Assembly: GCA_964591445.1 (NCBI GenBank)
Contig: CAZQAW010000001.1
Span: 83,010 to 147,009 of the forward strand
Source: an uncultured Candidatus Saccharibacteria bacterium
GTDB lineage: Bacteria > Patescibacteriota > Minisyncoccia > Phycocordibacterales > UBA9973
Reading direction: 5' to 3'
Length of the DNA stretch: 64,000 nucleotides
A program made the position numbers and the translations under genes. Below, in pieces: positions 9,133-60,766 of this stretch. Under the pieces are notes generated by a model that saw nothing but the letters and a program-made list of their open reading frames with translations, had not been told where the DNA came from and did no database searches. Each line of letters opens with the position of its first letter. Within the stretch, counting starts at the first letter, position 1.

Positions 9133-9160
9133 AGTCCTTCACGAATGAAGGACTTTTTTT
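9133..9160 (+). terminator. Rho-independent terminator (GTCCTTCA-CGAA-TGAAGGAC + T7)
   Basis: aaaaagtccttcacgaatgaaggacttttttt. Confidence 0.8.
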
Positions 9161-9163
9161 CTG

Positions 9164-9237
9164 CGCGATCGAGCGGATTTGAACCGCCGACCTCCCGCGT
9201 GACAGGCGGGCGCTCTAACCAGCTGAGCTACGACCGC
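9164..9237 (-). tRNA. tRNA-Asp (anticodon GUC), 74 nt, CCA not encoded
   Basis: Hand-folded: acceptor GCGGTCG/CGATCGC, D-arm TAGCTCAGCTGGTTAGAGC, anticodon loop CTGTCAC, T-arm GGCGG-TTCAAAT-CCGCT. Confidence 0.8.
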
Positions 9238-9303
9238 ATAATTTTTAAAACAAAAACTGTGTCACTATTTCAAACTATCATATCAGGAAGTTATTCCCAA
9301 ATA

Positions 9304-35021: not shown

Positions 35022-38000
35022 CTAAAGTGGGTGGCTATTGAAATATGCACGAGTGATCGCACCAAAGGTGCCAGCCGCCGGGCTTATCTTATGTTCTTTT
35101 TGGAATTCAATGAGTGCAGCTTCGGTACCCTTGCCGAATATGCCATCGACGTCGAGCGTGAGGTCAAGCGCTTTGTTCAAATACTTTTGAATTTCTTTGA
35201 TTTCAGCATTTTTTGCACCACGTTTGAAATACCCCTTAAACGTATAGGTTCCCGTGTTGGCTGGGGTTTCAGATTGTGTGTGTGTTTTCTTCCATTTTTC
35301 TATCGCCGCCTGACTTAGCTTGCCAAACAAACCATCAACCGCAAGACCGGCATTGATTTCTGTATTCAGATACGTTTGCAAAGCTTTGATCTCATCTTTT
35401 GAAATTCCAGCTTTGTAATATCCGGCAAGAATTTTTTGGGCAATCGTATCAACCGATGCTCCAGGATTTTGTGGTGTCTGAATATTTGTCGGTGGTGTTG
35501 GAATAATGATTACAGCTCCGCCAGGCGCTCCACCAGAGACAGGCGCCGAGCTTGTTGTAAATGTCTGATCTGAGCTTGTAGCCAAGTTACTTGAAGCATC
35601 ATTTGATTGTACTCTAAAGTGATAAAGGGTGCTTGAAGTCAGACTGTTGATCGTTACCGAGTGACTTGTGACTCGAGGCGACGTATCGGCTTCTGTTGTT
35701 GAAGTTCCATAGGAAATTGTCGGGCCATAATCAACGACCGATGAGGCAATTTCATCCGTATCCCATGTGATAGTGACGCTATTATACGTCGGCGTTGCAA
35801 CAATGTTTGAAATAACTGGTGGAGTTACGTCTGGCGCAGCAGTTGTTGTAAAGGTTTGATCTGTTGATGTTCCCAAATTACTTGCCGCGTCGTTTGATTT
35901 CACGCGGAAGTGGTACGTTGTTGAAGACGAAAGACTGTTTATCGTAACAGAATGAGAAGTAACTCTCGGCGAAGTATCTGCCTCAGATGTACTTGTACCA
36001 TAGCTTGCTGTTGGTCCGTAGTCGACAATTGAAGATGCTGCCTCATCTGTATCCCATGTAATCTGCACGCTATTGTGCGTCGGAGTTGCAACAATGTTTG
36101 AAATGACCGGAGCAGTTACATCTGGCGCAACAGTTGTTGTAAAGGTTTGATCGCTTGAAATTCCTTCGTTTGGAGTTCCGGCATCATCTTTTGACTTTAC
36201 GCGGAAATGGTATGTTGTAGAACCAGTCAAGCCAGACAGATTGACGGTGTGAGAAATCACGCGAGTTGAAGTATCTGTTTCTGTTGTTGAAGTGCCATAC
36301 GACACAGTCGTACCGTATTCAACCAAAGACGACCCACGTTCATCGCTGTCCCATGTTATCGTTGCGCTCGTAGCGGTAATACTTGATACAACAATATTTG
36401 AAATAGCCGGTGCAGTTGTGTCTGTAACTGTTGATTCGCTGAACGTACCATTTGATCCATTTGAAGACCCGGTTCCGCTTGTGCCAGTACCCGCATTTGC
36501 AACCGGAGCAGTACCTGAATATGTTTTATTCGTATAATCAAAACGGATGCGTCCACCACCACCCGAAGCCGCACCGGCAATTGCGCCCGATCCACCCGCT
36601 CCTCCGTTTGCCGTAATCACACCAGTAGTACCGGCATAATTTTTTACAGCACCCCAGATACTTCCACCGGCAGCACCCACATCACCATTCGCAGACAAAG
36701 TACCGTCAACAGTAAGAGTGTCGGTCACATTTAATTTCATTGCTCCACCACCACGTGCGGTTGCAGTATAAGAACTTGTTGCCGTTGTACCACCCAAGTG
36801 TCCTGCTCCAAGCGTAACCGGTGCAGTCGAAGATCCGTATGACTGACTATCACTTGCAGTAATAGTAGGACACAAAGGTGTAGAAGTTGTCTGTCCTTGT
36901 CCGCCGGCACCACCATGACCTGCTCCGTTAAATCGGTTTGAACTACACGCTGCACCGCGACCAGTTGTCGTCGTATCTGTGTCATGATGCCCCATGGCGT
37001 TTACCGTCAATGTTCCACCACTATTGATCGTAAGGTATGTTGCATTCAAGGTACCGCCGGTTCCCATATTACTTGAAGCAGTTGGATCAGAATCGAGTGT
37101 AAGCGTACCACCGGAAGCGATCGTAAGAGTGCCGAAAGTATAAGAAATATCATTACCAAGCTTAAGAGCATTTGAAAGTGTGAAAGTTGAAGACGGATAT
37201 TGTGTTGGGAAATAGACAGTACCAGTGTAACCAGCATGTCCACCCGTTGTTGAAGTGACAGTTCCCCCGTTTACTTGCAGCGTCCCAGTAAATGAATACG
37301 TCGCTCCGTTAAAAGAGACGCGTCCGCCGCCGCCGGCGCCGCCGCCTTGATTTCCATCACCACCGTTTGCACGAATAGTTCCGCCACCGGCTACAGTGCC
37401 AGAAGAAAACCAAATACTTCCTCCCGAACCACCGCCGCGCTCGGCTAGGCCGGTTGCAATTGATCCATTTGAAGAAATAGTTCCGTCAACAGTTGTCGTT
37501 CCGGACACAACAAACTTGAGTGCGCCACCACCGGCACCGCCTTTTGCACGTCCCGCCCCAGAACCAAGAGACACCGGAGAGGAAGCGGATCCGTATTTTG
37601 CTCCACCAGTTCCTGCATACGAAAGCGCAGTGTTTCCACCACGACCACCGTATCCACCACCTGCTGCTCGGTTGGAACTATTACCTGTTGCACCAACTCC
37701 TGACGCAGAGGTATACCCTCCCGGAAAGCCAAGTCCGTCCCCTACAATACTTCCACCGCTATTTACATTGAGTGTTGTTGCAGTCAAAGTGTAGCCTGTA
37801 CCAGCAACAATGTCGCCATCAAGCGTAAGAGTGTAGCCATTTGGAACAGTGAGTGTACCAAATGTCTGTTGTAAATCATTACCAAGAGTAAGATTGCTTG
37901 TCAGCGTAAAATTGGAAAGCGTAGCTGATGGGAAATACACCGTACCTGCTTGCCCACGACTACCGACTGAAGTTGCAGCAGTATTGACCGTACCACCAGA

Positions 38001-41000
38001 AACATCAACTGTCCCAGTAAATGAATACGTCGCTCCGTTAAAAGAGACGCGTCCGCCGCCGCCGGCGCCTGAAGTTGTGGTATCAGTATGAGAAGGGATA
38101 CTTCCACCTTTTGCTGAGATAGTACCCGAACCAGACACACTACCATTTGAAAACCAAATACTTCCTCCCGAACCACCGCCGTTTCGCGTACCACCCGTAC
38201 CAGAAGAAGCGTCTTCACCATTTGCAGAAAGAGTACCGTTGACAGTGACAGTTGAAGCAACGAGTTTGAGTGCGCCACCACCGGCACCGCCTTGTCCATT
38301 TGCTTGACTAGCACAAGTAACACCCGGATAACATCCAGCACCAAAAGCACCTCCTGACCCAAGAGCAACCGGAGACGCACTTGAACCATATGGTGCACCA
38401 GCTGAATATGTAAAGTTGGAATCAAATCCTCCACGGCCACCGTATGATCCGCCAGGAGAACCAATAGACCCCGGAGAACCTACGTTTGAAATATATGAAC
38501 CAGGGCCGAGAGCTTGCGGAAAACCTTCAGCATTTGTAGTAAGAGTTCCTGATGCGCCTATCGTAATACTCCCCGCGTTGATGACATATCCAGTTCCATC
38601 ATTTGCAACAGTTGAAAGATCGCCATCGATATGCATGTCGTTTTGGAAACGAAGAGTACCTGCCGTCACTGTAATTGCGCCAGTAACAGTCAAAGAACCA
38701 AGCCCGCCCATGACAGCATATGGAGTATAAGTAACAGTATTCGTAAATCCAGTATCAAGCGTGAGCGAAGCAATGTTGTTTGCGCTGTAGTCGACGATGA
38801 CATCTTCACTTCGAGTTGAATCAAAAATAACAGCATGACCAGTATCAGGAACTACCACACCGCTCCAGTTTGATGCATCGCTCCAATAACCGCTTTGTCC
38901 AAGACCTGTCCATACACGAGTTGTCGAACTGACACCGCGAATCGTTTTTGAATCGTTTGCGTCGACACTGCCATCATTGTTTATATCAAGCCCAAGATAC
39001 GTTGCCGAAAACGTTCCGGAAAATGTCGTAAATGAAAGTCCGGAAATAACCAAAGTATCATTTGCAGAGAAACTTGAAGTGACATCGATCACCAATGTTT
39101 TATCAGAATCAGCGTAACTAACTGTCGTACTTGCTTTAGCACTCGCTGTTCCAGAAAATGTCGCGGTCGTATCTGTCGTATCCCACACCATTGCAGCACC
39201 AGCGGGGATCTTTATGCGTATGTCGTTGGTAGAAGTAATAACCGGAGTTTGACCATCCACAACAGTGATCGTCTGGATCGCTTGAGCTGCTTGGCTTTGA
39301 CTGAACACTTGGTTGTACGCACTATATATACCAGCAGCGGCGGCAGACGAAATAGTCATTGTACGGTTGTCGAGTGCATCGCTTCCGCCATCGTTACTTG
39401 TATCAATGCCAAGATTGGTCGGCGCAGAAACTTGAGAGAACGTTGTAAGCGAAAGTCCTGAAACTGTTATGGCATCATTTGCAGAAAAATTACTTGTTAC
39501 GTTAAGCACGAGTACCTTGCCTGACTCTTCATAGCTCACGGTTGTTGAAACTTTTGCGGCAGCTCCCCCGCCGATCGTCACAGTTGTGTCTGTCGTATCC
39601 CACAACATATTGAGTTCAGTCGGAATGCGAACGCGGATATCGTTTGTCGCAGTGATGGTTGCAGTTGAAGCATCGGTAATAGTAAGAGTACTGATTGCAG
39701 TTGTAGAGCCAGACACAGTATATACCTGACTCGCCGCAGAAGACACAGTCGCGGTGCTCGGTGAAAGTGTAGCTACTGTGTATGTTTGATCACATATTAA
39801 AGTATGACTTCCAGCACCAGTGTTTCCAGCATTGACATAAGGCGCAGCCCGATATGATTTTAAGTTCACTTGTGGAGTGCCTGTTGTATCGACACTAATG
39901 ATACCGTAGTGGTTACCGCTAGTAGAGTTACTACACACAAGTTCAGCACCTGCACCGGCCGGCGTAGTAGCTTTGATACTTGAATTCAAAGGGGACGCAC
40001 CAAACTCTGCGTAGTTATGAGATGTTGAAAGAGGGTTCTTATAGGAAACTGTATTGTGTTGATCTGCAGAAAGTACAAAAACATTCTTAAGGTTATTGCG
40101 TTTTAAAAAAGTATATATCTCTTGACGCTCAGTGTTGAAAGTATAAAAGCTATCATTTGCGTTTGCGACAGCATCAGACCATGGAGTTGGAGAAAGGATA
40201 AACTTAAAAGTTGCAGTGCTATTCTTGAGCCAGCTTTTTAGATGCGCCATTTGTGCTGCACCCAACATGCGATTTGAGTTACTTTCATATCCACGATCTT
40301 TACCACGATGTGTACGTGTGTCAAGCATGAAAAATGATGTATCACATACATTGAAACTATAGTAGAGTTCGTTCGGAACTCGAACAGACGGATTGACTTG
40401 TCCTTGGTAATTGTCAAAAGCAAGACGACTCACGCTGTAGCCGCTGGTCTTTCCAGCATCCCAATCGTGGTCATTGAGAGAAAGAGTTACGTGATCGTCT
40501 GGAGTGAGAAGTTCGTGATCATCCCACATAAAAACTGAGCCGATGGCTTTTGTAAAAGTCTTCATGGCAGAGTCTATCCAGTTTGCTTTGTAGTATGTTT
40601 CGATATCGGCTTGTGTTCCAGAACTTGGACCATAAATCTGATCTCCAAGAAACACATTGAAGTTTGGTGTTGCTGTGTTTACAATTTCATCGAAGTTTAA
40701 AGTTTCATTTCCAGCACTCACTGCCCCGGTGTCTATATCGGCAGAAAGCGAGAACACATAACTACATGCAGTACCAGAAGTCTTGAGTGTCACAAATGTT
40801 CCAGACGAGCCATTGCCTGATTGCACCACATCGTCAATGAGCACACGGTAATCATAGGAAGTATCCGGAAGAAGACCAGTGATAGAAATAGTACCTGTAT
40901 AATCTGTGCCTGAGCTGAGCGCAACTCCAGAAGTGATCGTGCCCGGATATGCATCACCTGTGAGCTTGTATTCAACTTTGTATGTTGAAGCAGAATCAGA

Positions 41001-41153
41001 ACGCACCCAGATCTTGATCGAAGTGTCAGTCGGTGCGCCGAGTACCGCTCCATATGAAAGTGTTGCTGCATGTGTCGACGCAGGCACGAACAAAAATGTG
41101 CATAGTATCATGCACACAAAAAGAATATAGGTAATGTATTTCGTGAACTTCAT
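35022..41153 (-). CDS. Giant secreted cell-surface protein (2043 aa): signal peptide, PhoD-like alkaline phosphatase, Gly-rich beta-helix repeats, 3x fibronectin type III, 2x peptidoglycan-binding domain
   Basis: Signal MKFTKYITYILFVCMILCTFLFVPASTHA. PhoD_N-like segment then FMWDDHE metallophosphatase. Repeated GGAGGGGRVSFNGATYSFTGT modules. Three about 95-aa FN3 repeats (PVISNIVATPT...TYHFRVKSND). Tandem LAVDGLFGK / LDVDGIFGK PG_binding_1 repeats at the C-terminus. Confidence 0.85.
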   Translation of the reverse strand: MKFTKYITYILFVCMILCTFLFVPASTHAATLSYGAVLGAPTDTSIKIWVRSDSASTYKVEYKLTGDAYPGTITSGVALSSGTDYTGTISITGLLPDTSYDYRVLIDDVVQSGNGSSGTFVTLKTSGTACSYVFSLSADIDTGAVSAGNETLNFDEIVNTATPNFNVFLGDQIYGPSSGTQADIETYYKANWIDSAMKTFTKAIGSVFMWDDHELLTPDDHVTLSLNDHDWDAGKTSGYSVSRLAFDNYQGQVNPSVRVPNELYYSFNVCDTSFFMLDTRTHRGKDRGYESNSNRMLGAAQMAHLKSWLKNSTATFKFILSPTPWSDAVANANDSFYTFNTERQEIYTFLKRNNLKNVFVLSADQHNTVSYKNPLSTSHNYAEFGASPLNSSIKATTPAGAGAELVCSNSTSGNHYGIISVDTTGTPQVNLKSYRAAPYVNAGNTGAGSHTLICDQTYTVATLSPSTATVSSAASQVYTVSGSTTAISTLTITDASTATITATNDIRVRIPTELNMLWDTTDTTVTIGGGAAAKVSTTVSYEESGKVLVLNVTSNFSANDAITVSGLSLTTFSQVSAPTNLGIDTSNDGGSDALDNRTMTISSAAAAGIYSAYNQVFSQSQAAQAIQTITVVDGQTPVITSTNDIRIKIPAGAAMVWDTTDTTATFSGTASAKASTTVSYADSDKTLVIDVTSSFSANDTLVISGLSFTTFSGTFSATYLGLDINNDGSVDANDSKTIRGVSSTTRVWTGLGQSGYWSDASNWSGVVVPDTGHAVIFDSTRSEDVIVDYSANNIASLTLDTGFTNTVTYTPYAVMGGLGSLTVTGAITVTAGTLRFQNDMHIDGDLSTVANDGTGYVINAGSITIGASGTLTTNAEGFPQALGPGSYISNVGSPGSIGSPGGSYGGRGGFDSNFTYSAGAPYGSSASPVALGSGGAFGAGCYPGVTCASQANGQGGAGGGALKLVASTVTVNGTLSANGEDASSGTGGTRNGGGSGGSIWFSNGSVSGSGTISAKGGSIPSHTDTTTSGAGGGGRVSFNGATYSFTGTVDVSGGTVNTAATSVGSRGQAGTVYFPSATLSNFTLTSNLTLGNDLQQTFGTLTVPNGYTLTLDGDIVAGTGYTLTATTLNVNSGGSIVGDGLGFPGGYTSASGVGATGNSSNRAAGGGYGGRGGNTALSYAGTGGAKYGSASSPVSLGSGAGRAKGGAGGGALKFVVSGTTTVDGTISSNGSIATGLAERGGGSGGSIWFSSGTVAGGGTIRANGGDGNQGGGAGGGGRVSFNGATYSFTGTLQVNGGTVTSTTGGHAGYTGTVYFPTQYPSSTFTLSNALKLGNDISYTFGTLTIASGGTLTLDSDPTASSNMGTGGTLNATYLTINSGGTLTVNAMGHHDTDTTTTGRGAACSSNRFNGAGHGGAGGQGQTTSTPLCPTITASDSQSYGSSTAPVTLGAGHLGGTTATSSYTATARGGGAMKLNVTDTLTVDGTLSANGDVGAAGGSIWGAVKNYAGTTGVITANGGAGGSGAIAGAASGGGGRIRFDYTNKTYSGTAPVANAGTGTSGTGSSNGSNGTFSESTVTDTTAPAISNIVVSSITATSATITWDSDERGSSLVEYGTTVSYGTSTTETDTSTRVISHTVNLSGLTGSTTYHFRVKSKDDAGTPNEGISSDQTFTTTVAPDVTAPVISNIVATPTHNSVQITWDTDEAASSIVDYGPTASYGTSTSEADTSPRVTSHSVTINSLSSSTTYHFRVKSNDAASNLGTSTDQTFTTTAAPDVTPPVISNIVATPTYNSVTITWDTDEIASSVVDYGPTISYGTSTTEADTSPRVTSHSVTINSLTSSTLYHFRVQSNDASSNLATSSDQTFTTSSAPVSGGAPGGAVIIIPTPPTNIQTPQNPGASVDTIAQKILAGYYKAGISKDEIKALQTYLNTEINAGLAVDGLFGKLSQAAIEKWKKTHTQSETPANTGTYTFKGYFKRGAKNAEIKEIQKYLNKALDLTLDVDGIFGKGTEAALIEFQKEHKISPAAGTFGAITRAYFNSHPL

Positions 41154-41248: not shown

Positions 41249-42640
41249 ATGATGAGCAGAACAAAGACCTATATTATAGTAGCAATTGCATTCATCCTCA
41301 TTGGCGGCATCGGCTTTTTGTCTGTGAAGAAAAATGCGCATACCGAAGTCGCAACCACAACGACAGAACTTCCTGCAAGCGACACTCTTGATTCAAAAAA
41401 TGAAACGATTGCCTCTGAAAAAACATCCGAGCACACCGAAGGAGAAGCGAAGATATTTTCAGACAACTTGGCAAGCGTCGGCAAAAACGAACACGGTCAG
41501 CGCGGCGAAACAACAAGCACAGAGACAACATCGCTTCTTATGCCGGTTGAAATCGACAAAACATTTACAAAGATCGGCGCAGGAAGAAGCCATGGAGTAG
41601 GCATAACAAGCGACGGAGATGTGTATACATGGGGTCGCAACAACTTGGGACAGCTCGGCTACAAAACTGACGATACGCAGTACAATCCGATTCCCCATCT
41701 TGTCATGTCAGACGCAAGCGACATAGCTGTAGGCCAAGACCACACTCTCGTATTGAAGAAAGACGGCACAGTATGGGGCTTTGGCTCAAACTACACGGGA
41801 GCGCTTGGAGATGGTACAAACACTGACCAGGCGACTCCAGTCAAAGTCAAAGATATGTTAGGTATTGTACATATTTTTACTGGATATAAATTCTCGATGG
41901 CAATTGCAAACGATGGCAAGGTCTATGCATGGGGCGCAACATGTGCACCTTCATCTGTGCGTGTTGCAGCAGATATTGCGGCGCGTATCAACACCCTGGA
42001 TGGAGGATATTACGACCCAGTTCCGTCCATCAACCCGAACGGCTACGACCATAACCAAGATTGCATCAACGAAGCTGTCATTGGTATTCACAGTAAATCT
42101 CCAGTGGAAATGAAGTCACTTTCTGGTGTGACAAAAGATATTTCGATCGGCTACGGACATGCACTTATACTTCAAAAAGACGGGTCAGTCTGGAGCTTCG
42201 GCTGTAACTTGTACGGACAAATGGGCAACCGCACATACAACAACAAAGTTGAAAATGCCAAGCCACAGAAGATCCTCGATATCGCAAACGTAAAAGCTGT
42301 TTCAGCAGGCTTCAGACATTCACTTGCGGTTACCGAAGACGGCAAGGTGTACATGTGGGGCATCAATGCAAAATTGGAAGACGGAAAACGGCTGCTGAAC
42401 AGCTCTTCGCCTGTTGAAATGAAAACACTTGATGTCAAAAATCTAGCAAGCGTCCACGCCGGCTATGATATTTCGTTTGCACTTATGAAAGATGGTGCGG
42501 TGTATGCATGGGGCGCAAACACAAACCATGTTGTGAACAATGCACCAGACCAAATGCTCGCACCAACTCTCATGCAACTTTCTAAGAAAATAAAGGTACT
42601 TGCGCCAGGCATAGACACCGTGCTTTTCCTCACGAAATAA
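41249..42640 (+). CDS. Membrane-anchored RCC1-repeat (beta-propeller) protein
   Basis: N-terminal TM, then repeated GxxHxxxLxxDGxVYxWGxNxxGQLG units. Confidence 0.8.
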   Translation: MMSRTKTYIIVAIAFILIGGIGFLSVKKNAHTEVATTTTELPASDTLDSKNETIASEKTSEHTEGEAKIFSDNLASVGKNEHGQRGETTSTETTSLLMPVEIDKTFTKIGAGRSHGVGITSDGDVYTWGRNNLGQLGYKTDDTQYNPIPHLVMSDASDIAVGQDHTLVLKKDGTVWGFGSNYTGALGDGTNTDQATPVKVKDMLGIVHIFTGYKFSMAIANDGKVYAWGATCAPSSVRVAADIAARINTLDGGYYDPVPSINPNGYDHNQDCINEAVIGIHSKSPVEMKSLSGVTKDISIGYGHALILQKDGSVWSFGCNLYGQMGNRTYNNKVENAKPQKILDIANVKAVSAGFRHSLAVTEDGKVYMWGINAKLEDGKRLLNSSSPVEMKTLDVKNLASVHAGYDISFALMKDGAVYAWGANTNHVVNNAPDQMLAPTLMQLSKKIKVLAPGIDTVLFLTK

Positions 42641-48124: not shown

Positions 48125-49483
48125 TTGTCATTCAATGACGAATATGTTTTAGAAGAGCAGCTAAGAACCTCTTCCGAAGAACATATTATGAAAAAGCAAA
48201 AGTTAGTATGGTCAATTACTTCTCGTAAAGTAAGTGATCTAACAAAAAACGGATACAATCCGAGAAAACTAGGTGAGGGCGAAAAAAGAGATTTAGAAAA
48301 GTCTATCAAGGAATTTGGAACAGTAGTTCCTGTTATCCTTAATATTGGTTCCAGAGCCAATATACTTATTGGCGGTGAACAGCGTGTAAAAGTCTACGCC
48401 GATCTCGGTATAGAAGATGTTGAGTGTATGATACCTTCTCGAGAGTTAACACTTGAAGAAGAAAAAGAACTCAATCTTAGACTTAATAAAAACACGGGAT
48501 CATGGGATGAAGAGCTTCTAAAAGAGTTCGAAATGGATATGCTTCTTAATGTTGGTTTTGGAGATGAAGAATTACAAAATCTTTTTGATGACGTGGATCT
48601 TGTAGAAGATGATTTTGATATTGAAAAAGCTATTAAAGAAACCATTACTCCAAAAGTAAAAATTGGCGAGATATGGGAGCTTGGAAAACACAGGTTACTT
48701 GTGGGCGACTCTACTGACATAACCTCTGTACAAAAGTTAATGGATGGTGACCTTGCAGACATAATCTACTGTGATCCCCCATATAACATTGGCTTGGACT
48801 ATTCAAAGGGTGTTGGTAATAAAGAAAAATATCAAGGTTCATATTCTGCTAAAGATGATTCAAAAAAAGATTCTGACTACATGGATTTTTTAGATAAGAG
48901 TATGGAAGTAACTAAAATCATAGCCAAGAAAGATACTCATTTCTTTTATTGGTCTGATTCTTCGTATCTCTGGATGACTCAGGAATTATACAAAAAACAC
49001 GACATTCAAAATAAGAGGGTTTGCCTCTGGTTAAAAAACAATCAAAATTGTACTCCTAAAATTGCCTTCAATAAAGTTTATGAACCGTGTGTCTATGGAA
49101 TCATTGGTAAGCCTTACATAAATCCCAATATGAATAATGCCAACGAAATTCTTAATCAAGAAATAACAACTGGCAATCAAGCTCACGACGAGATACTTGA
49201 AATGATAGATATTTGGATTGAAAAAAGAGATAGTGCTCAATCATATCAACATCCAACACAGAAACCAGTTACCTTAAACGAAAAACCAATTAAACGTTGT
49301 AGTGCCCCATTGCACATTGTATTCAGTGGCTTCGGCGGAAGTGGTAGTGATTTAATTGCTTGTGAAGAACTCGGTAGATGTTGGAGAGGGGTTGAAAAAG
49401 ATCTTATTTTCGCAACCATCATAATCGAAAGATGGGAAAAATTTACCAACCTTAAGGCAAAGAAAATCTATGAAAATAAATAA
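48125..49483 (+). CDS. ParB-like nuclease N-terminal domain fused to a beta-class N4/N6 DNA methyltransferase
   Basis: N-terminus SDLTKNGYNPRKL...LIGGEQRVKVYADLG (ParB/Srx fold). MTase motif IV IIYCDPPYN upstream of motif I region HPTQKPVTL...FSGFGGSGSD. Start likely at MKKQKLV (about 48188). Confidence 0.8.
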   Translation: MSFNDEYVLEEQLRTSSEEHIMKKQKLVWSITSRKVSDLTKNGYNPRKLGEGEKRDLEKSIKEFGTVVPVILNIGSRANILIGGEQRVKVYADLGIEDVECMIPSRELTLEEEKELNLRLNKNTGSWDEELLKEFEMDMLLNVGFGDEELQNLFDDVDLVEDDFDIEKAIKETITPKVKIGEIWELGKHRLLVGDSTDITSVQKLMDGDLADIIYCDPPYNIGLDYSKGVGNKEKYQGSYSAKDDSKKDSDYMDFLDKSMEVTKIIAKKDTHFFYWSDSSYLWMTQELYKKHDIQNKRVCLWLKNNQNCTPKIAFNKVYEPCVYGIIGKPYINPNMNNANEILNQEITTGNQAHDEILEMIDIWIEKRDSAQSYQHPTQKPVTLNEKPIKRCSAPLHIVFSGFGGSGSDLIACEELGRCWRGVEKDLIFATIIIERWEKFTNLKAKKIYENK

Positions 49484-50219
49484 AGGAGAAATCTATAAGG
49501 TTGGAAATCATGTGATCGGTTGTGGCGATTCTACAGATCAAGTGTTTGTGTCTAAAGTAATTGGAAAAAATAAAATACGGGCTATCATTGCCGATCCACC
49601 ATACGGCGTTGCGTATGTAGAAAATAAAAAAGGTTTTGCAAAGCTTGGAGTTAAAGATGAGAAAATAATTGCAGGCGATCATATTCAAAGTGAAGATGAC
49701 TATGAAGAATTCACTAGAAAATATCTGGGGGCAGTTGTTCCATATTTAGAAGAATATAATGCATGCTACATATTTAATGCTGATCCAATGTTTCCATCAC
49801 TTCGTATTGGCATGAAAAATGCAGGTTTTTATTATAGTCAGATGCTCATTTGGATTAAGAACCAACCTGTGATGAGTCGGAAAGATTACCTGTCGCAATA
49901 TGAACTCATAGCATATGGATGGTTTGGTAAACATAAAACAGAAAGATCTAAAGCTAAAAATGTCATCTATTATCCAAGACCAAACAAATCTAAACTTCAC
50001 CCAACTCAAAAACCAATTGGTTTGCTTCGTAAAATTATTCCTGACAATACATCCATAGGAGATATTATTTATGATCCATTTTTAGGAAGTGGTTCTACTG
50101 CTATAAGTGCTGAACATTTAGGTCGAAAATGTATTGGTATAGAAATAGATGAGAAGTATGTGTCTATTGTACTTCAAAGGCTAGAAAAATTGACTGGAGA
50201 AAAACCAGTTAAGATATAA
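49470..50219 (+). CDS. Beta-class N4/N6 DNA methyltransferase (orphan)
   Basis: IIADPPYGV (motif IV) ... HPTQKPIGLLRKII ... DPFLGSGSTAISAEHLGRKCIGIEID (motif I). Confidence 0.85.
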   Translation: MKINKGEIYKVGNHVIGCGDSTDQVFVSKVIGKNKIRAIIADPPYGVAYVENKKGFAKLGVKDEKIIAGDHIQSEDDYEEFTRKYLGAVVPYLEEYNACYIFNADPMFPSLRIGMKNAGFYYSQMLIWIKNQPVMSRKDYLSQYELIAYGWFGKHKTERSKAKNVIYYPRPNKSKLHPTQKPIGLLRKIIPDNTSIGDIIYDPFLGSGSTAISAEHLGRKCIGIEIDEKYVSIVLQRLEKLTGEKPVKI

Positions 50220-52315: not shown

Positions 52316-52328
52316 TACAGGGTAGCAG

Positions 52329-52356
52329 TTGACAAAAAGGTTGAATATGATATAAT
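52329..52356 (+). promoter_or_regulatory. Near-consensus sigma70 promoter TTGACA-16-TATAAT with TG extended -10, followed by a structured 5' UTR, driving the DGR target gene
   Basis: ttgacaaaaaggttgaatatgatataat; downstream nested inverted repeats CCCGACCTC...GAGG...GTCGGG; RBS aaaggataag before ATG 52446. Confidence 0.6.
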
Positions 52357-52445
52357 TAGACTTAGTAAACGATACCCGACCTCTATCAAACAATCGAGGA
52401 CTTGGGTGTCGGGACCCAGTTCTTTAAATTTAAAAGGATAAGACA

Positions 52446-53363
52446 ATGACAACAGAAAAGTTGATCACGTCTGAACAAACAGACAAAGTCGCAGATCTTG
52501 GCAGAGAAGCTGTAAAGACTGCAGTTGGTAAAGTAAATCCAACAAGAGTAAACGTTCAAACTGGCATCATCAGCAACGGGCGTGAGTTTAAAAACAGAGT
52601 GGAAGAAGCTGTAAAAGCAATCATTCTGGAAATGACAACTCCCAACCAGTATGCTAACGAGGTGGTTAGCTCAAACTACACCTACCCCAGTGAGTATAAG
52701 ATGAAGCCGATTTCAGAACAGGTACAATCCATTGCTGAAAAGTTTGGACTTGATCCAACATCGGCATTGGAGTTTATCAAAACATTGCCTGCATTACCTG
52801 ACGGTGCCGAAGGATGGTTCGCCATTCCAAAAGTATCATCAGTTGCAAAAAAACATTTTTCTGCGATTACCGATTCTGCCGAACAGTATTGCGAAGCTAC
52901 AAAGTTGGTTCACAGCAAACTTGCTGAAAGCCGTAGCTTCTACAATTACCGTGAAGGTCAGATTACCACCGCACAGATTCGCCAACATCCCCGTACCATC
53001 AGTTTCCTCGAACAATTGGAATCTGAACAACAGGGTGACATTCTGATTCTCGCCGTTCAATACGGAATGAGACATCGTGGCAAATCAGTTCGTCGTGCAA
53101 GAGAAACGTTCTCAGGTAATGAATTCGGACTTGGAGCATTCGCTCTTGGCTGTATGGCATTGGTTCACCCCGATCGTTATGTTCGTTGGGAAGAACTTGA
53201 TACCGATTGTGCAGGTGACGAATTTGCTCCTGATGCTGCTGGCGTGTTCTCGAAGGCTCCGATCTTCTACTTCAGCGATGACGGGCTTGAGTTCGTCGCG
53301 AACGTTGTGTCCTTTGCCTACGTTTACTATGGTTCTGCCTCGGCGTTCGTTCCGCAGAATTGA
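52446..53363 (+). CDS. DGR target protein (variable protein); C-terminal 43 codons are the variable repeat
   Basis: VR occupies the last 131 nt before the stop; see VR/TR features. Confidence 0.8.
   Translation: MTTEKLITSEQTDKVADLGREAVKTAVGKVNPTRVNVQTGIISNGREFKNRVEEAVKAIILEMTTPNQYANEVVSSNYTYPSEYKMKPISEQVQSIAEKFGLDPTSALEFIKTLPALPDGAEGWFAIPKVSSVAKKHFSAITDSAEQYCEATKLVHSKLAESRSFYNYREGQITTAQIRQHPRTISFLEQLESEQQGDILILAVQYGMRHRGKSVRRARETFSGNEFGLGAFALGCMALVHPDRYVRWEELDTDCAGDEFAPDAAGVFSKAPIFYFSDDGLEFVANVVSFAYVYYGSASAFVPQN
53227..53357 (+). repeat. DGR variable repeat (VR)
   Basis: 131-bp ungapped alignment to TR: 116 identities and 15 mismatches, every mismatch at a TR adenine (VR carries C/T/G). The 3' 35 bp (ctatggttctgcctcggcgttcgttccg) is identical (IMH-like). 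Confidence 0.85.
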
Positions 53364-53426
53364 TCCTTGTACTTTGAATTCTTGAATCTTTTGTTTCCTT
53401 GATTCTTGATCTCAAAAATTTTTTTG

Positions 53427-53460
53427 AATAGGGTTATCCACATGGATGACCCTATTTTTG
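53427..53460 (+). terminator. Hairpin + T-run downstream of VR (target-gene terminator and/or DGR cruciform element)
   Basis: aatagggttatccacatggatgaccctatttttg. Confidence 0.6.
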
Positions 53461-53731
53461 CGTTTAATTCAAAAACTGATATAGTAACTATGAGTCTAGG
53501 TTAGTGTATAGTCGTTTACGGATGACTATCACCGAACTCTTTCTCTTATGAGAAATCTCCAACCAGAATCATGAAGATCAAGGTTTTCATGAGAGTGTTG
53601 TTGTGATAAGGGATACTGCTTACTACTTTTTAAGGCAAGCATGTAAATGTGTTGCCAGATAAAATACAGAATTGTGATTCATGTGCAATATCATGTTTCG
53701 TGATTTGTGACTTGGATAGAAAGTAGTAAAA

Positions 53732-53862
53732 CTCCTGATGCTGATGGCGTGTTCTCGAAGGCTCCGATCTTCAACTTCAACGATGACAAGCTTAAGTTCG
53801 ACACGAACGATGTGTCCAATGCCAACGATAACTATGGTTCTGCCTCGGCGTTCGTTCCGAAG
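53732..53862 (+). repeat. DGR template repeat (TR), non-coding
   Basis: See VR. The ORF-track ORF 53707..53964 spanning it is judged spurious. Confidence 0.85.
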
Positions 53863-53908
53863 TATCCAATATACACAAAAGGTATCCTGTTAGGGATACC
53901 TTTTGCTT

Positions 53909-54256
53909 TTATCGTTCAACTGAACGAATCCATCCACCAAGCATTCTACCGATCTCGTCGGTAATATTTTGAAGCAGAGTGTACTTCTTTACATCAAGCG
54001 TTTTACTTTCTTTCATTAATCGAACAAAGAAACGAAAAATGTTTAATTTTACACTAGCTTTTTCAAGTAAAAGTAATTTGCGTTCTTTTGAAGAATAACT
54101 AGCTTCTAGGACATATTCGAGAATATCAATCATTACATTTTCAGATCGTTCATAGATTAAAAATCTTTCATGTTTTGGGACTAATGTTCTGTATTCATGA
54201 AATGTTTTATATAACTCGTGAATTTTTCTTAGAATTGGCACATCATTTTCATTCAT
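53909..54256 (-). CDS. avd: Avd-like accessory variability determinant (four-helix-bundle / 23S rRNA IVS-protein family), encoded antisense between TR and RT
   Basis: VPKHERFLIYERSENVMIDILEYVLEA ... ITDEIGRMLGGWIRSV resembles the family pattern FPKEE.Y.L.SQ.RR...SI..NIAEG ... EIGRML.GLI. Confidence 0.7.
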   Translation of the reverse strand: MNENDVPILRKIHELYKTFHEYRTLVPKHERFLIYERSENVMIDILEYVLEASYSSKERKLLLLEKASVKLNIFRFFVRLMKESKTLDVKKYTLLQNITDEIGRMLGGWIRSVER

Positions 54257-55312
54257 ATGCGTGTATTTATCAATTTATTTAATTCATTAATTCAGCCAGA
54301 ACACCTATTTTATTCATGGGAGGAATTTAAACGTGACAAAGGTTTAAAGGAAGATATCCTCTTATTTGAGAAAAATCTTGAAAGTGAGATATTTAAACTT
54401 CACCGAGAACTAAAAGGAGGAGTGTATAAACATAGTGGATATGAAAGTTTCTTTATTTCAGATCCAAAACGAAGACATATCCATAAAGCAACAGTAAGAG
54501 ACCGTGTAGTACATCATGCAATTATGCATACGTTGTATCCTCTCTACGACAAAACATTTATTAATAATTCATTTTCTTGTCGTGTTGGTAAAGGAACTCA
54601 TAAAGGTGTTCTTGCCCTTAGATCTATGATTGCCAAGGCGAGTAAAAATAATACTCAAACTGTTTACATTCTCAAGTGTGATGTTGAGAAATTTTTTGAT
54701 TCAGTTCATCATATTATTTTAATTGATATACTTAGAAAAAGAATTAGGGACAAAAAACTCATGGATTTACTGATAGAAGTAATTGAGAGTTTTATAAGTG
54801 ATCGTTCTACTTTATTTGATCATGTAGGTTTACCAATTGGAAATCTTACATCTCAACTTTTTGCAAACATATACATGGATAAATTTGACCAATATATGAA
54901 GCATGAATTGAAAGTAAAATACTATGCTCGTTACACAGATGACTTTGTTATTGTGAGTGAAAATAAAGAATACTTGTCTAACCTTAAATTAGATATTTCT
55001 AAATTCCTTAGTGAGTCACTAAGACTTACTATTCACCCAAAGAAAATTACCATTCGTAAGTATACTCATGGTATTGATTTTCTAGGACATGTTTCTTTTC
55101 CACATCATGTATTGATAAGAAAAAGAACCTTAGAAAGAGCTACGAGAAGAATTAATGAGAAGATTGTTTTGTATAAAGCAGGATCTCTTGAGAAAGAGAA
55201 ACTTGAAGCCACTTTATATTCATATCTTGGAGTTCTTTCTCACGCCAATGCTTATAGATTTTCTGAGAAACTGAAGAATGACTATTTTCTTTCGGTTAAT
55301 AATCCTGATTAA
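54257..55312 (+). CDS. DGR reverse transcriptase
   Basis: RT motifs: KRRHIHKATVRDRVVHHAI (motifs 1-2), CRVGKGTH (3), LPIGNLTSQLFANIY (DGR-specific IGxxxSQ motif 4), YARYTDDFVI (YxDD, motif 5). 351 aa. Confidence 0.9.
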   Translation: MRVFINLFNSLIQPEHLFYSWEEFKRDKGLKEDILLFEKNLESEIFKLHRELKGGVYKHSGYESFFISDPKRRHIHKATVRDRVVHHAIMHTLYPLYDKTFINNSFSCRVGKGTHKGVLALRSMIAKASKNNTQTVYILKCDVEKFFDSVHHIILIDILRKRIRDKKLMDLLIEVIESFISDRSTLFDHVGLPIGNLTSQLFANIYMDKFDQYMKHELKVKYYARYTDDFVIVSENKEYLSNLKLDISKFLSESLRLTIHPKKITIRKYTHGIDFLGHVSFPHHVLIRKRTLERATRRINEKIVLYKAGSLEKEKLEATLYSYLGVLSHANAYRFSEKLKNDYFLSVNNPD

Positions 55313-55364
55313 AAAAATTCGACTAGGTTTTATAATCAGCTAATTTGATTAAGACTTTACTGAA

Positions 55365-56456
55365 TTACTGGCATTGAGGGCTTAATGTACGACTAGGAAA
55401 TGAAGAAAGTAACGACTCTAAAGAAGTAAAGGATTTTATATATTTTTCATTTAATGACTTCCAGCCATCACATGTTTCTGGATAATAATATTTAGAAGTT
55501 GAATATGACGATGTGTAATACTTTCCAGTTGAATTGGTGGTACTTGTAGAAGTAGAAGAGGATGTTGGAGTCGCAGTAACAGCAGAAGTTGTAGTATTAC
55601 CATTACATGTATTAATAGACCATAATCCTAAAAGATTTGCTTGAGCATATTTTTGTGCTGTTTTAAATTCAGATTGATATTTATATGGCGAGTTATAAGT
55701 ATACTCATGTGCATATCCCTGTTCAATCATGTATTTATTATAAAATAGACCATCTTCTCTATATACATATGCTAAAGTACGTCCGTATTTATCGAGAGTG
55801 TCTTGAGTTGAATCAGTCTCAATTCTAACTTTTTTCCCTGATAATAATTCTTTTGCTTTATTGGATGCCTCTTTACCAAAGCATTGAACTGGCTTCCTTG
55901 GATCAAGTGTTTCTGGGGTGTCTAATCCAATAAGACGAAGTGTTATGATTGCTCCGTCTTTATTTATTTTAATAGTATCCCCATCAACAACGCTTGAAAC
56001 TGCATAATATTTATATTGAGAATTAGGTGAAGTTGTAGGTGTTTGTGCAGAAGTCACCGATTTAACTTCTTGTACATTTTTTACTTCTTGTTTAACGGGT
56101 ATTATTTCATTATTTATCTGTTGAGCTGAATTTTCTGTTTTTACTTGAGTATTTATATTTTCTAAAACATTATTATTTTGTGGAGCAGGTATTATTTCTG
56201 TTTTCTTTGGAAGAAAAATAGAAGAAACAACTAATAAGACAATTACAGCAACAATTTTTATTGTTCTTGAAAGGGAAAAATTAAATTTCCTTTGAATAAA
56301 TTTAGAAATGGCAGGAATTGTAATTAGTGAAGCAAGAATCATAAATATTCCACCCAGAATACTTTTTTCTAAAGTACTAAGACCAGCTATTAACAACAAT
56401 ATACCTATAGTCCAAGATAGAAAGTTGATTAGATTTAATTTAATATTTTTATTCAT
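55365..56456 (-). CDS. Membrane-anchored thermonuclease (staphylococcal nuclease-like) with Ser/Thr-rich linker and Cys-containing C-terminal domain
   Basis: N-terminal TMs; SNase core VVDGDTIKI...LRLIGLDTPE...KYGRTLAYVY. Confidence 0.75.
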   Translation of the reverse strand: MNKNIKLNLINFLSWTIGILLLIAGLSTLEKSILGGIFMILASLITIPAISKFIQRKFNFSLSRTIKIVAVIVLLVVSSIFLPKKTEIIPAPQNNNVLENINTQVKTENSAQQINNEIIPVKQEVKNVQEVKSVTSAQTPTTSPNSQYKYYAVSSVVDGDTIKINKDGAIITLRLIGLDTPETLDPRKPVQCFGKEASNKAKELLSGKKVRIETDSTQDTLDKYGRTLAYVYREDGLFYNKYMIEQGYAHEYTYNSPYKYQSEFKTAQKYAQANLLGLWSINTCNGNTTTSAVTATPTSSSTSTSTTNSTGKYYTSSYSTSKYYYPETCDGWKSLNEKYIKSFTSLESLLSSFPSRTLSPQCQ

Positions 56457-56471
56457 AATTTATTAAATTAC

Positions 56472-56840
56472 TTAAGAAATAATATTGATTAAAATAATTA
56501 GTCCTATAAAAATGGCTATAGCAATAAGAATCATTTTTCTCTGTTTGATATTTTTTACTTCTGCCTTTTTGTCCTCTGAAACAGCTTTTTCTATTTCTTC
56601 TTTAGACATAACCTCGCTTATTATCTTTTGTGCTCTTGGGGAGTCCATAGGTATTAGACTTGGACTTTTACATTTAGGACATATTTTATGTCTTGATGAA
56701 GACCTCCAGATTGAGTAGATTAGCCCTGGGATAATAAAACAAAGCCAAAGGATTACTTCTATACAACCATTCCCTCCAATCGCACCCTTTGGTTCACCGA
56801 CATAATTACATTGAGTACAAACTAATATTTTTGATGACAT
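56472..56840 (-). CDS. Hypothetical zinc-ribbon membrane protein
   Basis: CTQCNY...CPKCKS with two TM helices. Confidence 0.45.
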   Translation of the reverse strand: MSSKILVCTQCNYVGEPKGAIGGNGCIEVILWLCFIIPGLIYSIWRSSSRHKICPKCKSPSLIPMDSPRAQKIISEVMSKEEIEKAVSEDKKAEVKNIKQRKMILIAIAIFIGLIILINIIS

Positions 56841-56864
56841 ATTTAAAAAATTAATTAATAATAT

Positions 56865-57578
56865 TTATTCATATAAAACAGTTAAAATGCCAGTACCAGA
56901 GAAATCACCTTGGTTTGGGGTATGGATTGTTATTACAGATTTTCCATATTTGTAATCTATGTTAGGATTAACATTTATTTTTTCCTCTGGAATTCGTATC
57001 TTTGGATAAATACCGCCAAAAATAATTTGGTCTGAGTTGAAATGCTGAGTGTAAACAAGTTTATCGTTCTTTGACATTGAATTACTGCCAGCATATAACT
57101 TTACATCGGCGGTAATTAACATTTTTTCTGTTGCGTCACTAGTTATAATATCTCCATTTTTATCTAAATATACTACTTCAAGAACAGGTCCATCATTTTC
57201 AACATCAGCATCCCAATTATCCTGTAGTCCTCCACTAACTCGTATAGCAGATAGTCCGTCTATCTGTAAAGTTTTATTAGATGATATTGGTGTTGTTGGG
57301 ACAACTTGAGTATTTGCGACCACTGGTACAGTTTTTGGAGTGGTAACTATTTTATTTTGAACCACTGTATCTTTTTGTATTACGTTAGTTTCTGCTACCG
57401 CAACAGGACTACTTACTGTTGATTCGACAATTGGAATCTCATCTTGTATTGGAATTTGAGCAATAGGTTCTTTTTTGTTTGAGAATTTAGAACCAACAAA
57501 TAGACCAATAACAAGTATTGCAACTATAACAACAATCTTACCTGTTATAGTTTCCATAAATTGTTTTACATCTTTCAT
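56865..57578 (-). CDS. Hypothetical membrane-anchored secreted protein
   Basis: N-terminal TM (IVVIVAILVIGLFVG); no domain recognised. Confidence 0.45.
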   Translation of the reverse strand: MKDVKQFMETITGKIVVIVAILVIGLFVGSKFSNKKEPIAQIPIQDEIPIVESTVSSPVAVAETNVIQKDTVVQNKIVTTPKTVPVVANTQVVPTTPISSNKTLQIDGLSAIRVSGGLQDNWDADVENDGPVLEVVYLDKNGDIITSDATEKMLITADVKLYAGSNSMSKNDKLVYTQHFNSDQIIFGGIYPKIRIPEEKINVNPNIDYKYGKSVITIHTPNQGDFSGTGILTVLYE

Positions 57579-57878
57579 ATTAGATTTACTTTTGCGTTTT
57601 TAGTGATAAAACCTAGTGATAAGACGCAAAAAGCCCACCACATAGGTAGAGACCGAAGTCTCTCATATCAGTTTCCCGATACGGCATATCACGCGACCCC
57701 ATATGATGGGTTCTTTATGCGTGATATGACTAACTTTCACCATGCCTTTATTTCTAAAGGTTTAGGCTACTTAAACTATTAACTTGTAAAGAAATTATAC
57801 CTTATTTTTTAAGGTTGCACCATATTAGCTCACATTTAAATATTTGTGTAGTCTAGTTATCAACAGGTTAGTAGCATG

Positions 57879-59437: not shown

Positions 59438-60766
59438 ATGAAAATAGATAACCCAAATCAAGATAAAGGTGTCGAGAAAATTAAGGTCGAACCAAAGAAG
59501 ATCAGGTACTGCCTTTATGCAAGAAAATCAACAGAATCAGAGGAAAGACAAGTCCTTTCCATAGACAGCCAAATCAGCGAGATGCTCCAATTAGCCGATC
59601 GTGAGGGGCTTGAGGTGGTCACCATGAAGCGTGAAAGCCATAGTGCTAAAGAGACTGGACAAAGACCTGTATTTAACGAAATTATTGAAGAAATCAAACA
59701 AGACAAATTTAATGCAATCCTCACTTGGGCACCCGATCGTATTTCAAGAAATGCGGGTGATCTTGGAAAAATAGTAGACTTAATGGATTCAGGTAAACTA
59801 CACATGATAAGAACCTTCGGACAAACATTTGGGAATAATCCTAATGAGAAATTTCTTCTTATGATTCTTGGTTCACAAGCAAAACTAGAAAATGATAACA
59901 GAGGAATAAATGTGAAGAGAGGGTTACGAACGAGAGTAGAGATGGGATTATGGCCTGGGATGGCACCACTTGGCTACTTAAATCAAAAGTTAATGGATAG
60001 GAAGTGTCAGATAGTAATTGATCCAGATAGAGCACCTATTATAAAGAAAATGTTTGAGAAAGTGGTATATGAACACTGGAGTGGAAGAAAGGTATACAAC
60101 TGGTTAAGATTTGATTTAAACTTCTATACTCGAGGAAACAAACCCCTGACACTCTCAGGGGTTTATCGTATCTTTAATATGCCAATCTATTATGGACCAT
60201 TTGAATATCCTAGAAATTCTGATAACTGGTATCAAGGAAGTCATACACCAATAATTACTCAAGAGTTATTTGAAAAAGCTCAGGCACAATTAAAGAGAGA
60301 TAGAATTGTAAGAGAAAATAGAGAGTTTACCTTCACTAAATTATTTACATGTGGAATGTGTAGTTCAGGGATATCCGCTCAAGAAAAATATAAAGAACTT
60401 AAAGATGGAACAACTGCTAAATATGTCTACTACTCTTGTTCAAAATCTAGAGATAGGAATTGTAAAAATAAATACATACGAGAAGAAGAATTGATAGATG
60501 AATTATTTAAAGTAATTGATAAGGTAAGTATTAACGAGCTAGGGATGAGAATAAAACTTGAAGAAGAAATCAAACGATTCAATCGACTTCAAAGATTAGC
60601 AACAAAAGGCACACCAAAATACTCAATAAATGAGGACGATGTAAACACTAGAGAATATGCCAAGTATGTACTTAGAGAAGGCACACCGCTCGAAAAAAGA
60701 GAATTGCTTGGACATTTAAGGAGTAGGTTGATACTGAATGATAAAAAAATCACATTAGTAACTTAA
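59438..60766 (+). CDS. Large serine recombinase (resolvase catalytic domain + recombinase domain + zinc ribbon); putative integrase of the AT-rich island
   Basis: YCLYARKSTESEERQVLSIDSQ (catalytic Ser region), TWAPDRISRN; C-terminal CGMCSSG...YYSCSKSRDRNC zinc ribbon. Confidence 0.85.
   Translation: MKIDNPNQDKGVEKIKVEPKKIRYCLYARKSTESEERQVLSIDSQISEMLQLADREGLEVVTMKRESHSAKETGQRPVFNEIIEEIKQDKFNAILTWAPDRISRNAGDLGKIVDLMDSGKLHMIRTFGQTFGNNPNEKFLLMILGSQAKLENDNRGINVKRGLRTRVEMGLWPGMAPLGYLNQKLMDRKCQIVIDPDRAPIIKKMFEKVVYEHWSGRKVYNWLRFDLNFYTRGNKPLTLSGVYRIFNMPIYYGPFEYPRNSDNWYQGSHTPIITQELFEKAQAQLKRDRIVRENREFTFTKLFTCGMCSSGISAQEKYKELKDGTTAKYVYYSCSKSRDRNCKNKYIREEELIDELFKVIDKVSINELGMRIKLEEEIKRFNRLQRLATKGTPKYSINEDDVNTREYAKYVLREGTPLEKRELLGHLRSRLILNDKKITLVT

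Follow-up and report, generated by a model that had tools for sequence, protein, structure and literature searches.

To our knowledge, targeted protein hypermutation occurs naturally in prokaryotes solely through diversity-generating retroelements (DGRs), of which bacteria of the candidate phyla radiation (CPR), or Patescibacteria, are the richest and least understood hosts. We describe here a DGR from a stretch of 64,000 nucleotides (hereafter the window) of an uncultured Candidatus Saccharibacteria bacterium (GenBank assembly GCA_964591445.1, contig CAZQAW010000001.1, positions 83,010 to 147,009 of the forward strand). The element comprises a target gene ending in a variable repeat (VR), a non-coding template repeat (TR), the accessory variability determinant gene avd and a reverse transcriptase (RT) gene. 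All these components are present, with intact open reading frames (ORFs), in line with the complete DGR proposed in an initial annotation that was made from the sequence alone, and we are highly confident that the element is an intact, recently active DGR of the Patescibacteria (CPR) lineage.

The prototype of these elements, the DGR of Bordetella phage BPP-1, has the gene order mtd-avd-TR-brt. In BPP-1 the RNA 3′ of the TR pairs with a segment 5′ of the TR, forming the "cPRT Stop" duplex, a stem-loop directly after the TR binds Avd, and the catalytic DD of the reverse transcriptase (bRT) are residues 215–216; similar RNA elements were predicted in 207 DGRs (bioRxiv 10.1101/2023.10.23.563531). 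A series of RNA motifs named RT has been defined by nearness to RT genes, with RT-10 found in the BPP-1 DGR, and it was suggested that other RT motifs serve other DGRs (Weinberg et al. 2017, PMC5737381). As to the CPR, 90% of their DGRs show the architecture B3, TR-(avd)-RT, which is found almost nowhere else (Wu et al. 2018, PMC5758913). DGR clade 2 was described as a cellular group confined to Patescibacteria, in whose targets no transmembrane or conserved domain could be recognised; new C-type-lectin variants were predicted to be hidden in such targets (Roux et al. 2021, PMC8144416). The closest known systems also include TvpA of Treponema denticola and the FGE-type variable proteins with a C-type-lectin fold.

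The element of the window fits the descriptions of both architecture B3 and clade 2, and represents a known system and no new principle. It shares with the CPR DGRs the gene order, the inverted avd, the Patescibacteria relatives and the chromosomal location, as well as a target without recognisable domain, a C-terminal VR and adenine-specific change; no difference in kind was found, the match with clade 2 being one of description. With BPP-1 it has in common the presence of Avd, the IGxxxSQ and YxDD motifs of an RT whose closest solved relative is that of the phage, and a TR and VR of about 130 nt in which A-to-N changes affect the first two codon positions. Further likenesses are an A-free, GC-rich 3′ block resembling the initiation of mutagenic homing (IMH) sequence, with fixed differences of the IMH/IMH* type, a variable domain of C-type-lectin fold (here predicted), a duplex of the sequences flanking the TR and a stem-loop just past the TR. 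Unlike in BPP-1, avd is here placed between TR and RT in inverted orientation, which leaves no sequence counterpart of the BPP-1 spacer (Sp, Rfam RT-10), and a structured leader of about 170 nt is found 5′ of the TR instead. Moreover, the hairpin past the VR is 63 nt off and is preceded by an array of YCTTG motifs, the target, which carries no export signal, is no phage tail fibre, and the element is chromosomal and not part of a phage.

Template and Variable Repeats

A repeat search of the window retrieved one direct repeat of 134 nt, at 53227–53360 and 53732–53865, with 88% identity and an offset of 505 nt. The first copy is the VR (53227–53360, + strand), delimited by the repeat search, by recount and by the related loci described below; it makes up the 3′-terminal part of the target gene, spanning codons 262–305 of the 305-codon ORF. 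The second is the TR (53732–53865, + strand), the non-coding copy, which holds 31 adenines in 134 nt. When VR 53227–53357 was aligned without gaps to TR 53732–53862 (131 nt), our recount agreed with the initial annotation in giving 15 mismatches, all 15 at an adenine of the TR. Tabulated by TR base, the substitutions are therefore entirely biased to adenines, which are replaced in the VR by T (eight cases), G (five) or C (two); the probability that all mismatches fall on A by chance is ~1.5e-12 (hypergeometric). The changed adenines are 15 of the 31 in the 134-nt TR. A 16th mismatch, T in the TR and A in the VR, lies at 53358, just beyond the 131-nt range. With respect to the target ORF (52446–53363), the VR changes hit codon positions 1 and 2 solely.

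The diversified positions of the VR are confined to 53233–53329. The run of identity at the 3′ end, originally reported as 35 bp, was found to be 29 bp long (53326–53354), and the segment 53330–53354 is an A-free, GC-rich block, the same in VR and TR, which would serve as the IMH. The A-to-C difference at 53355 (...CCGCAG... in the VR, ...CCGAAG... in the TR) is the same in virtually all of the ~30 related loci compared, and it is therefore to be read as a fixed IMH/IMH*-type difference and not as a product of mutagenesis. Both 53355 and 53358 are fixed VR/TR differences, and 14 of the 15 adenine sites first taken as mutagenic remain as variable sites.

No further VR copy was found in the 64-kb window by a scan degenerate for A-to-N changes. 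An ORF of 85 codons with a GTG start (53707–53964, + strand) runs across the TR in the frame of the VR and continues through the hairpin that follows the TR; since it overlaps conserved RNA helices and this hairpin, it is probably spurious and not a gene.

Reverse Transcriptase and Avd

Avd is present in most DGRs, and DGR RTs are marked by the motif-4 signature [ILV]GxxxSQ together with the catalytic YxDD. Both motifs claimed for the RT of the window (54257–55312, + strand, 351 aa) were located, as PIGNLTSQ at aa 193–200 (54833–54856) and YTDD at aa 226–229 (54932–54943). The protein matched RVT_1 of Pfam, and its closest solved relative in a search of PDB sequences was chain 8ub7_A (E 1e-40), with group II intron RTs at E 3e-23 and retron-type RTs at ~1e-19 in the same search. 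The DD of 8ub7_A that aligns with the catalytic DD of our RT sits at residues 215–216, matching the description of bRT. A score of 377 bits was obtained with the phage RT family phrog_1423, against 131 bits at most with any PADLOC model of defence RTs, including those of defence-associated reverse transcriptases (DRT).

Other identities of the RT were considered and rejected. The top NCBIfam match by score, the group II model TIGR04416, reached 146 bits with a cut-off of 300, and no group II intron RNA was detected in the window by Rfam. Retron and DRT models of NCBIfam were likewise all below their cut-offs (Retron St85, 61.7 bits with a cut-off of 235; Drt3a, 76 with 200; Drt2, 67 with 390), and Rfam detected no retron RNA in the window.

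The avd gene (53909–54256, 115 aa) lies on the minus strand, opposite to TR and RT. An Avd-family ORF downstream of the TR had been recognised in the initial annotation, its inverted orientation having been missed; the family assignment itself is sustained by matches to PF22296 bAvd of Pfam (58.2 bits, cut-off 40) and to phrog_3206, "Avd protein of DGR" (E 2e-19). The C-terminus of the protein is EIGRMLGGWIRSV. The start codons of avd and RT abut (CAT/ATG at 54254–54259), so that the promoter of each must sit within the coding sequence of the other; the best promoter-like sites for the TR RNA, avd and RT match 9–10 of 12 positions and are as frequent as expected by chance.

Related Loci

Relatives were collected by a scan of one genome per species, leading to 80 loci, mostly from metagenome-assembled genomes (MAGs) of Patescibacteria and in a few cases from genomes with other or generic taxon labels. 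The named homologues of target and RT, too, come overwhelmingly from MAGs labelled Patescibacteria, consistent with the CPR host that had been guessed for the window. About 30 of the 80 loci carry RT and Avd beside the target, and the order seen in the window, TR (+), avd (−) and RT (+), is the same in about 30 relatives; in five related loci the whole module is inverted and lies 5′ of the target. The VR/TR pairs of these ~30 loci are ~131 nt long and show 12–26 mismatches, nearly all at TR adenines. The A-to-N signature of mutagenic homing, proposed on the window pair, is thus found in the window, in the sister element described next and in ~30 loci. On the contrary, in one locus with truncated RT and avd (L003) the adenine bias is lost, with 8 of 32 mismatches at A, and this decayed locus serves as an internal negative control.

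The sister element (L001; JAVHRS010000035, Paceibacterota) shares with the window a block of 5.5 kb at 96.5% identity (window 52322–57864, L001 3822–9361), which contains the DGR, a staphylococcal-nuclease homologue, two small membrane or unknown proteins and a LOOT RNA. The two TRs show no difference in 134 nt, and the 43 nt 3′ of the TR are also identical. The VRs differ at 16 positions, and 16 of 16 correspond to TR adenines. RT and avd differ by 1.8% and 1.7%, respectively, and the target outside the VR by 7.4%, being the most divergent coding segment of the shared block, with differences mostly in nt 100–500 of the gene. An identical TR, VRs that differ at 16 A-sites and a remaining cassette that has diverged by 1.7–7% indicate that diversification continued after the two elements split.

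The more distant comparison gives the same picture. In L005, L007, L008, L015, L016 and L087 the TR differs from that of the window at 4–20 positions, none of which is an A, and the VR of each relative tracks its own TR except at the A's. In an alignment of 83 target homologues the column entropy is low throughout, except at A-templated codons, where it rises to 2–3.5 bits. The high-entropy codons are those whose TR codon has an A at position 1 or 2 (AAC, AAT, AAG, GAT, GAC, ACG, ATC), and the A-free codons in between (P272, F274, F276, F283, G296, S299, F301) are nearly invariant. The invariant TR of the sister element, the A-only VR differences and the TR/VR pattern of the relatives are as mutagenic retrohoming predicts.

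Two tandem target paralogues were observed in L041, L047 and L081, and also in L028, L033 and L035. One template thus serves two targets in L041 and L047, where each of the two VRs differs from the only TR at TR adenines alone.

A (GA)n tract of 13–35 nt, absent from the RT gene of the window, was observed a few codons 5′ of the G-IPIGNLTSQ motif in ten related RT genes (L035, L044, L046, L047, L050, L053, L054, L055, L065 and L069; at ~8378–8440 in L044). In nine of the ten, the two halves of the RT lie in different frames, each one repeat unit off, L046 being in frame, and full-length RT homologues with an in-frame (RE)4–5 at the same position are found (P0284, P0388, P0390). The out-of-frame loci keep VR/TR pairs with nearly pure A bias. 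The tract looks like a device of slipped-strand phase variation (ON/OFF) of the mutator, or else the frame breaks may be assembly errors in a simple repeat; among the papers of the library searched, none joins DGRs with dinucleotide-repeat phase variation.

Target Protein

The target gene (52446–53363, + strand) encodes the variable protein of 305 aa. The near-consensus promoter proposed for it turned out to be a perfect match, TTGACA-16-TGnTATAAT with extended TG (52329–52356, + strand; 12/12 positions). This putative promoter, identified by consensus match only, is the sole perfect 12/12 site with TG, in a region whose total of promoter-like sites is not above chance.

No match to the target was found in Pfam, NCBIfam, PHROG or PADLOC, nor among PDB sequences by single-sequence and profile searches even at E 10, and inspection revealed neither a signal peptide nor a transmembrane segment. 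Its homologues number at least 1,837, none with a Pfam domain, and those named are from Patescibacteria. The AlphaFold model of the full-length protein had a predicted local distance difference test score (pLDDT) of 66 and no fold match. When residues 84–305 (52695–53360) were remodelled with 91 more diverse aligned sequences, a pLDDT of 85.6 and a predicted template modelling score (pTM) of 0.88 were obtained. The fold matches of this domain include the DGR protein TvpA, the FGE paralogue 1y4j, PvdO, EgtB and OvoA, as well as CLEC12A, Dectin-1 and CD72, and intimin and invasin. Residues 84–305 are therefore predicted to adopt a divergent C-type-lectin fold. The initial statement that the target has no recognised domain holds for the sequence methods and is amended by the model, according to which the part altered by the DGR is the tip of a C-type-lectin-like domain, the protein being widespread and uncharacterised.

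The target gene has 46% GC and the TR 49%, in surroundings of 27–31% GC. GC content at third codon positions is 0.41 in the target and 0.21 in the RT, so that the excess reaches synonymous positions. The target homologue is richer in GC than its flanks in 80 of 81 loci, with a DGR nearby or not (mean 57% vs 42%; target/flank correlation r = 0.64). The excess would be consistent with horizontal spread from a source of high GC content and partial amelioration, and a strong expression bias might be the alternative.

RNA Structures around the TR

The ~170 nt located 5′ of the TR are conserved and structured. The 5′ hairpin of this leader (53561–53599, + strand; CCAGA.U...UCAAGG...GAGAGUG) is kept in 16 loci, with compensatory change at 10 of 12 pairs. 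The hairpin covers the first 38 positions of the Rfam model RT-7 (RF03028), including the conserved CCAGA.U, UCAAGG and GAGAGUG, with 27.4 bits (E 1.4e-4). Membership of the leader in RT-7 was nonetheless rejected, the score being below the gathering score of 116.8 and the 5′ hairpin alone being aligned, with 144 of 191 model positions skipped; a gathering-level match was found in none of 11 related loci.

The hairpin is followed by a nearly invariant block, GGGATAC-TGCTT (53610–53621, + strand), and then by a three-helix domain (53624–53725, + strand), which ends 6 nt 5′ of the TR. In fold coordinates, the helices of the latter are P1 (53624–31/53718–25), P2 (53635–38/53652–55) and P3 (53669–77/53698–706). 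Of their 19 pairs, 15 are changed on both sides; 98.8% of the cells are paired, compared with 36–53% when the strands are slid, and the covariation of 0.72 (0.14–0.22 when slid) is reached by 0 of 500 shuffles.

Within the invariant block, GGATAC (53611–53616) pairs with GTATCC (53862–53867) across the 3′ border of the TR, which is thereby enclosed in a loop. Across 20 loci, 78% of the cells are paired in this duplex vs 35–56% when slid, with a covariation of 0.33 vs 0.12–0.18 that none of 500 shuffles reached, and the duplex is also present in the minimum free energy fold of the window itself. Support for the closing duplex is moderate, because the pairing was spotted by eye on the same sequences. 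It matches by position the duplex between upstream and downstream segments of BPP-1, of which it may be the counterpart.

Past the TR, a hairpin of 13 bp with T/A runs at its flanks (53876–53905, + strand) lies between the convergent TR and avd. It is the sole consensus helix of the downstream alignment, its stem sequences varying by locus with pairing kept. It resembles a bidirectional terminator, and its position could make it the counterpart of the Avd-binding stem-loop of other DGRs.

A pairing of the GGTGAC...GATGGA block, just 5′ of the TR, with the antisense 3′ end of avd (ATCCATCCACCAAG) was tried and rejected, RNAduplex energies being no better than those of shuffles (z from -1.7 to +1.7) and RNAalifold on the concatenated alignment predicting no such helix.

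Homing Site

Directly 3′ of the stop codon of the target lies an array of four YCTTG motifs (53364–53409, + strand; motifs at 53365–69, 53380–84, 53397–401 and 53404–08, with a central CTTTTG at 53388–93). In 31 VR flanks the density of the motif is 2.8 per 70 nt vs a background of 0.17, the array being found in nearly all loci; in the same loci it is absent after the TR. Family members around which at least 3 kb are free of RT and TR are followed by the array as well (2.4 motifs). The array is possibly a target-site recognition element; it may be a homing-site element kept in copies diversified in trans, or a regulatory element linked to the gene.

The hairpin with a T-run reported after the VR was readily found as a 14-bp stem followed by a T-run (53426–53457, + strand), 63 nt past the stop codon. 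Its stem, GGGTTATCCAC, recurs in distant loci, and the structure resembles a terminator for the target gene. An inverted repeat rich in GC directly 3′ of the IMH occurs in about a third of DGRs and is not universal; here the interval between VR and hairpin holds the YCTTG array.

Genomic Setting

The contig that holds the window is 158 kb long. Positions 1–44,000 of the window have ~44% GC and carry housekeeping genes, including those for SMC, GyrB, a class II tRNA synthetase, a PilB-type ATPase and an AddA-type helicase. From ~44.5 kb to its end the window has ~31% GC, and this AT-rich island holds the DGR cassette. The island also encodes a large serine recombinase (59438–60766), two ParB/N6_N4 DNA methyltransferases with PHROG matches (48125–49483 and 49470–50219), an HD-domain protein, an S9-family hydrolase and a membrane-anchored staphylococcal-nuclease homologue (55365–56456, − strand; PADLOC model "SNc+LTD", E 3e-44). 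No phage structural, terminase or portal gene was found among the island ORFs tested. The island is probably an integrated mobile element whose right end lies past the window. Close cassettes were found in unrelated neighbourhoods, namely beside genes for ribonucleotide reductase (RNR) and DsbB, for SecE and NusG, and beside an HD_3 gene, indicating that the target-TR-(avd)-RT unit moves as a block.

A LOOT RNA (Rfam RF03000; 57648–57768, − strand) lies 2.3 kb downstream of the RT, with 73.6 bits and a gathering score of 46.4. LOOT or LOOT-like sequences were observed near the DGR in at least three relatives (L001, 3508–3720 and ~9145–9265; L055, 10342–10463; L060, 7035–7159). The match of L060 immediately follows the target gene on its 3′ side, and the two LOOT-like copies of L001 bracket the shared 5.5-kb block. 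In the chromosomal part of the window, an ORF of 2,043 aa (35022–41153, − strand) adjoins the gene of an RCC1-repeat protein (41249–42640).

Discussion

In an active DGR of this kind, the RT-Avd complex would bind the structured RNA bearing the TR (~53560–53910) and copy it into cDNA, with random nucleotides placed opposite template adenines. This cDNA would then take the place of the target's 3′-terminal VR as far as the IMH-like block without A. We infer the priming of the cDNA, the role of Avd and the homing into the VR from the paradigm of the Bordetella phage, and the presumed roles of the duplex between leader and TR 3′ edge, of the post-TR hairpin and of the YCTTG array are drawn from the same analogy.

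Several points weigh against an intact and recently active DGR. The post-VR hairpin, adjacent in BPP-1, is here at a distance of 63 nt. The Avd scored 77.4 bits with the NCBIfam model NF033474 DivGenRetAVD, 2.6 under the cut-off of 80, and a confident sigma-70-type promoter was found neither for the TR RNA nor for avd or RT. The DGR type of the RT is a reading from motifs, profile scores and the PDB sequence match; scores, cut-offs and PDB ranking do not group it with group II intron or retron RTs. Finally, the evidence of activity in this population is indirect, coming from comparison between loci. This last point, together with the existence of decayed relatives, such as L003, with its truncated RT and avd and lost bias, and L087/L088, with an RT of 142 aa, speaks for a DGR that is complete in sequence but inactive, the VR/TR differences being a fossil. 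We consider such inactivity very improbable, since the ORFs of the window are all intact with their catalytic motifs, the homology zone has no non-A mismatch except the fixed terminal one, and the sister element combines an identical TR with VRs changed at 16 A-sites in a cassette otherwise 1.7–7% diverged.

Annotations in which RTs closely homologous to this one are termed "retron-type" or "group II intron", and the group II model as top NCBIfam score, might suggest an ordinary partial gene duplication beside an unrelated retron, group II intron or defence RT. The chance of ~1e-12 for an all-on-A pattern that is moreover repeated in ~30 loci, an RT that reaches the NCBIfam cut-off of no group II, retron or Drt model, the lack of group II intron and retron RNA in the window by Rfam, bRT as the closest solved structure and an adjacent DGR Avd leave to a duplication hardly any credence at all. 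A phage-borne DGR diversifying a receptor-binding (tail fibre) protein, as in BPP-1, could be imagined from the AT-rich island with its large serine recombinase and its ParB/methyltransferase genes matching PHROG. It is very improbable, however, as no structural, terminase or portal genes are among the island ORFs tested, the target has no PHROG match, close cassettes lie amid housekeeping genes (SecE/NusG, RNR) and the published CPR clade was described as cellular (PMC8144416). We therefore retain an intact, recently active DGR of the Patescibacteria lineage as the explanation of the locus.

A further proposal concerns the mechanism, namely that leader, YCTTG array and trans action together make the cis-architecture of the CPR DGR clade mechanistically unlike that of BPP-1, which seems to us unlikely, if conceivable. 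In such an architecture the ~170-nt leader would replace the 3′ spacer in its scaffolding, and possibly priming, role, its invariant GAUAC-UGCUU block would pair with the first bases past the TR, and the YCTTG array would be a target-recognition element replacing the adjacent cruciform. One RT/TR module could then diversify in trans dispersed, GC-rich, horizontally spreading copies of the target, an idea suggested by the array that also follows members without a local DGR.

As an intact Patescibacteria DGR, the locus is a clean exemplar, and its sister element documents diversification that started from an identical template. The loci compared define a large, conserved, cytoplasmic-looking target family with a predicted divergent C-type-lectin variable domain, a covarying leader with a closing duplex that can be compared directly with the cryo-EM model of BPP-1, and, at the homing site, a repeat array that is conserved. 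Such features offer handles on how the DGRs of CPR bacteria recognise template and target, and on the ligand of the target protein.

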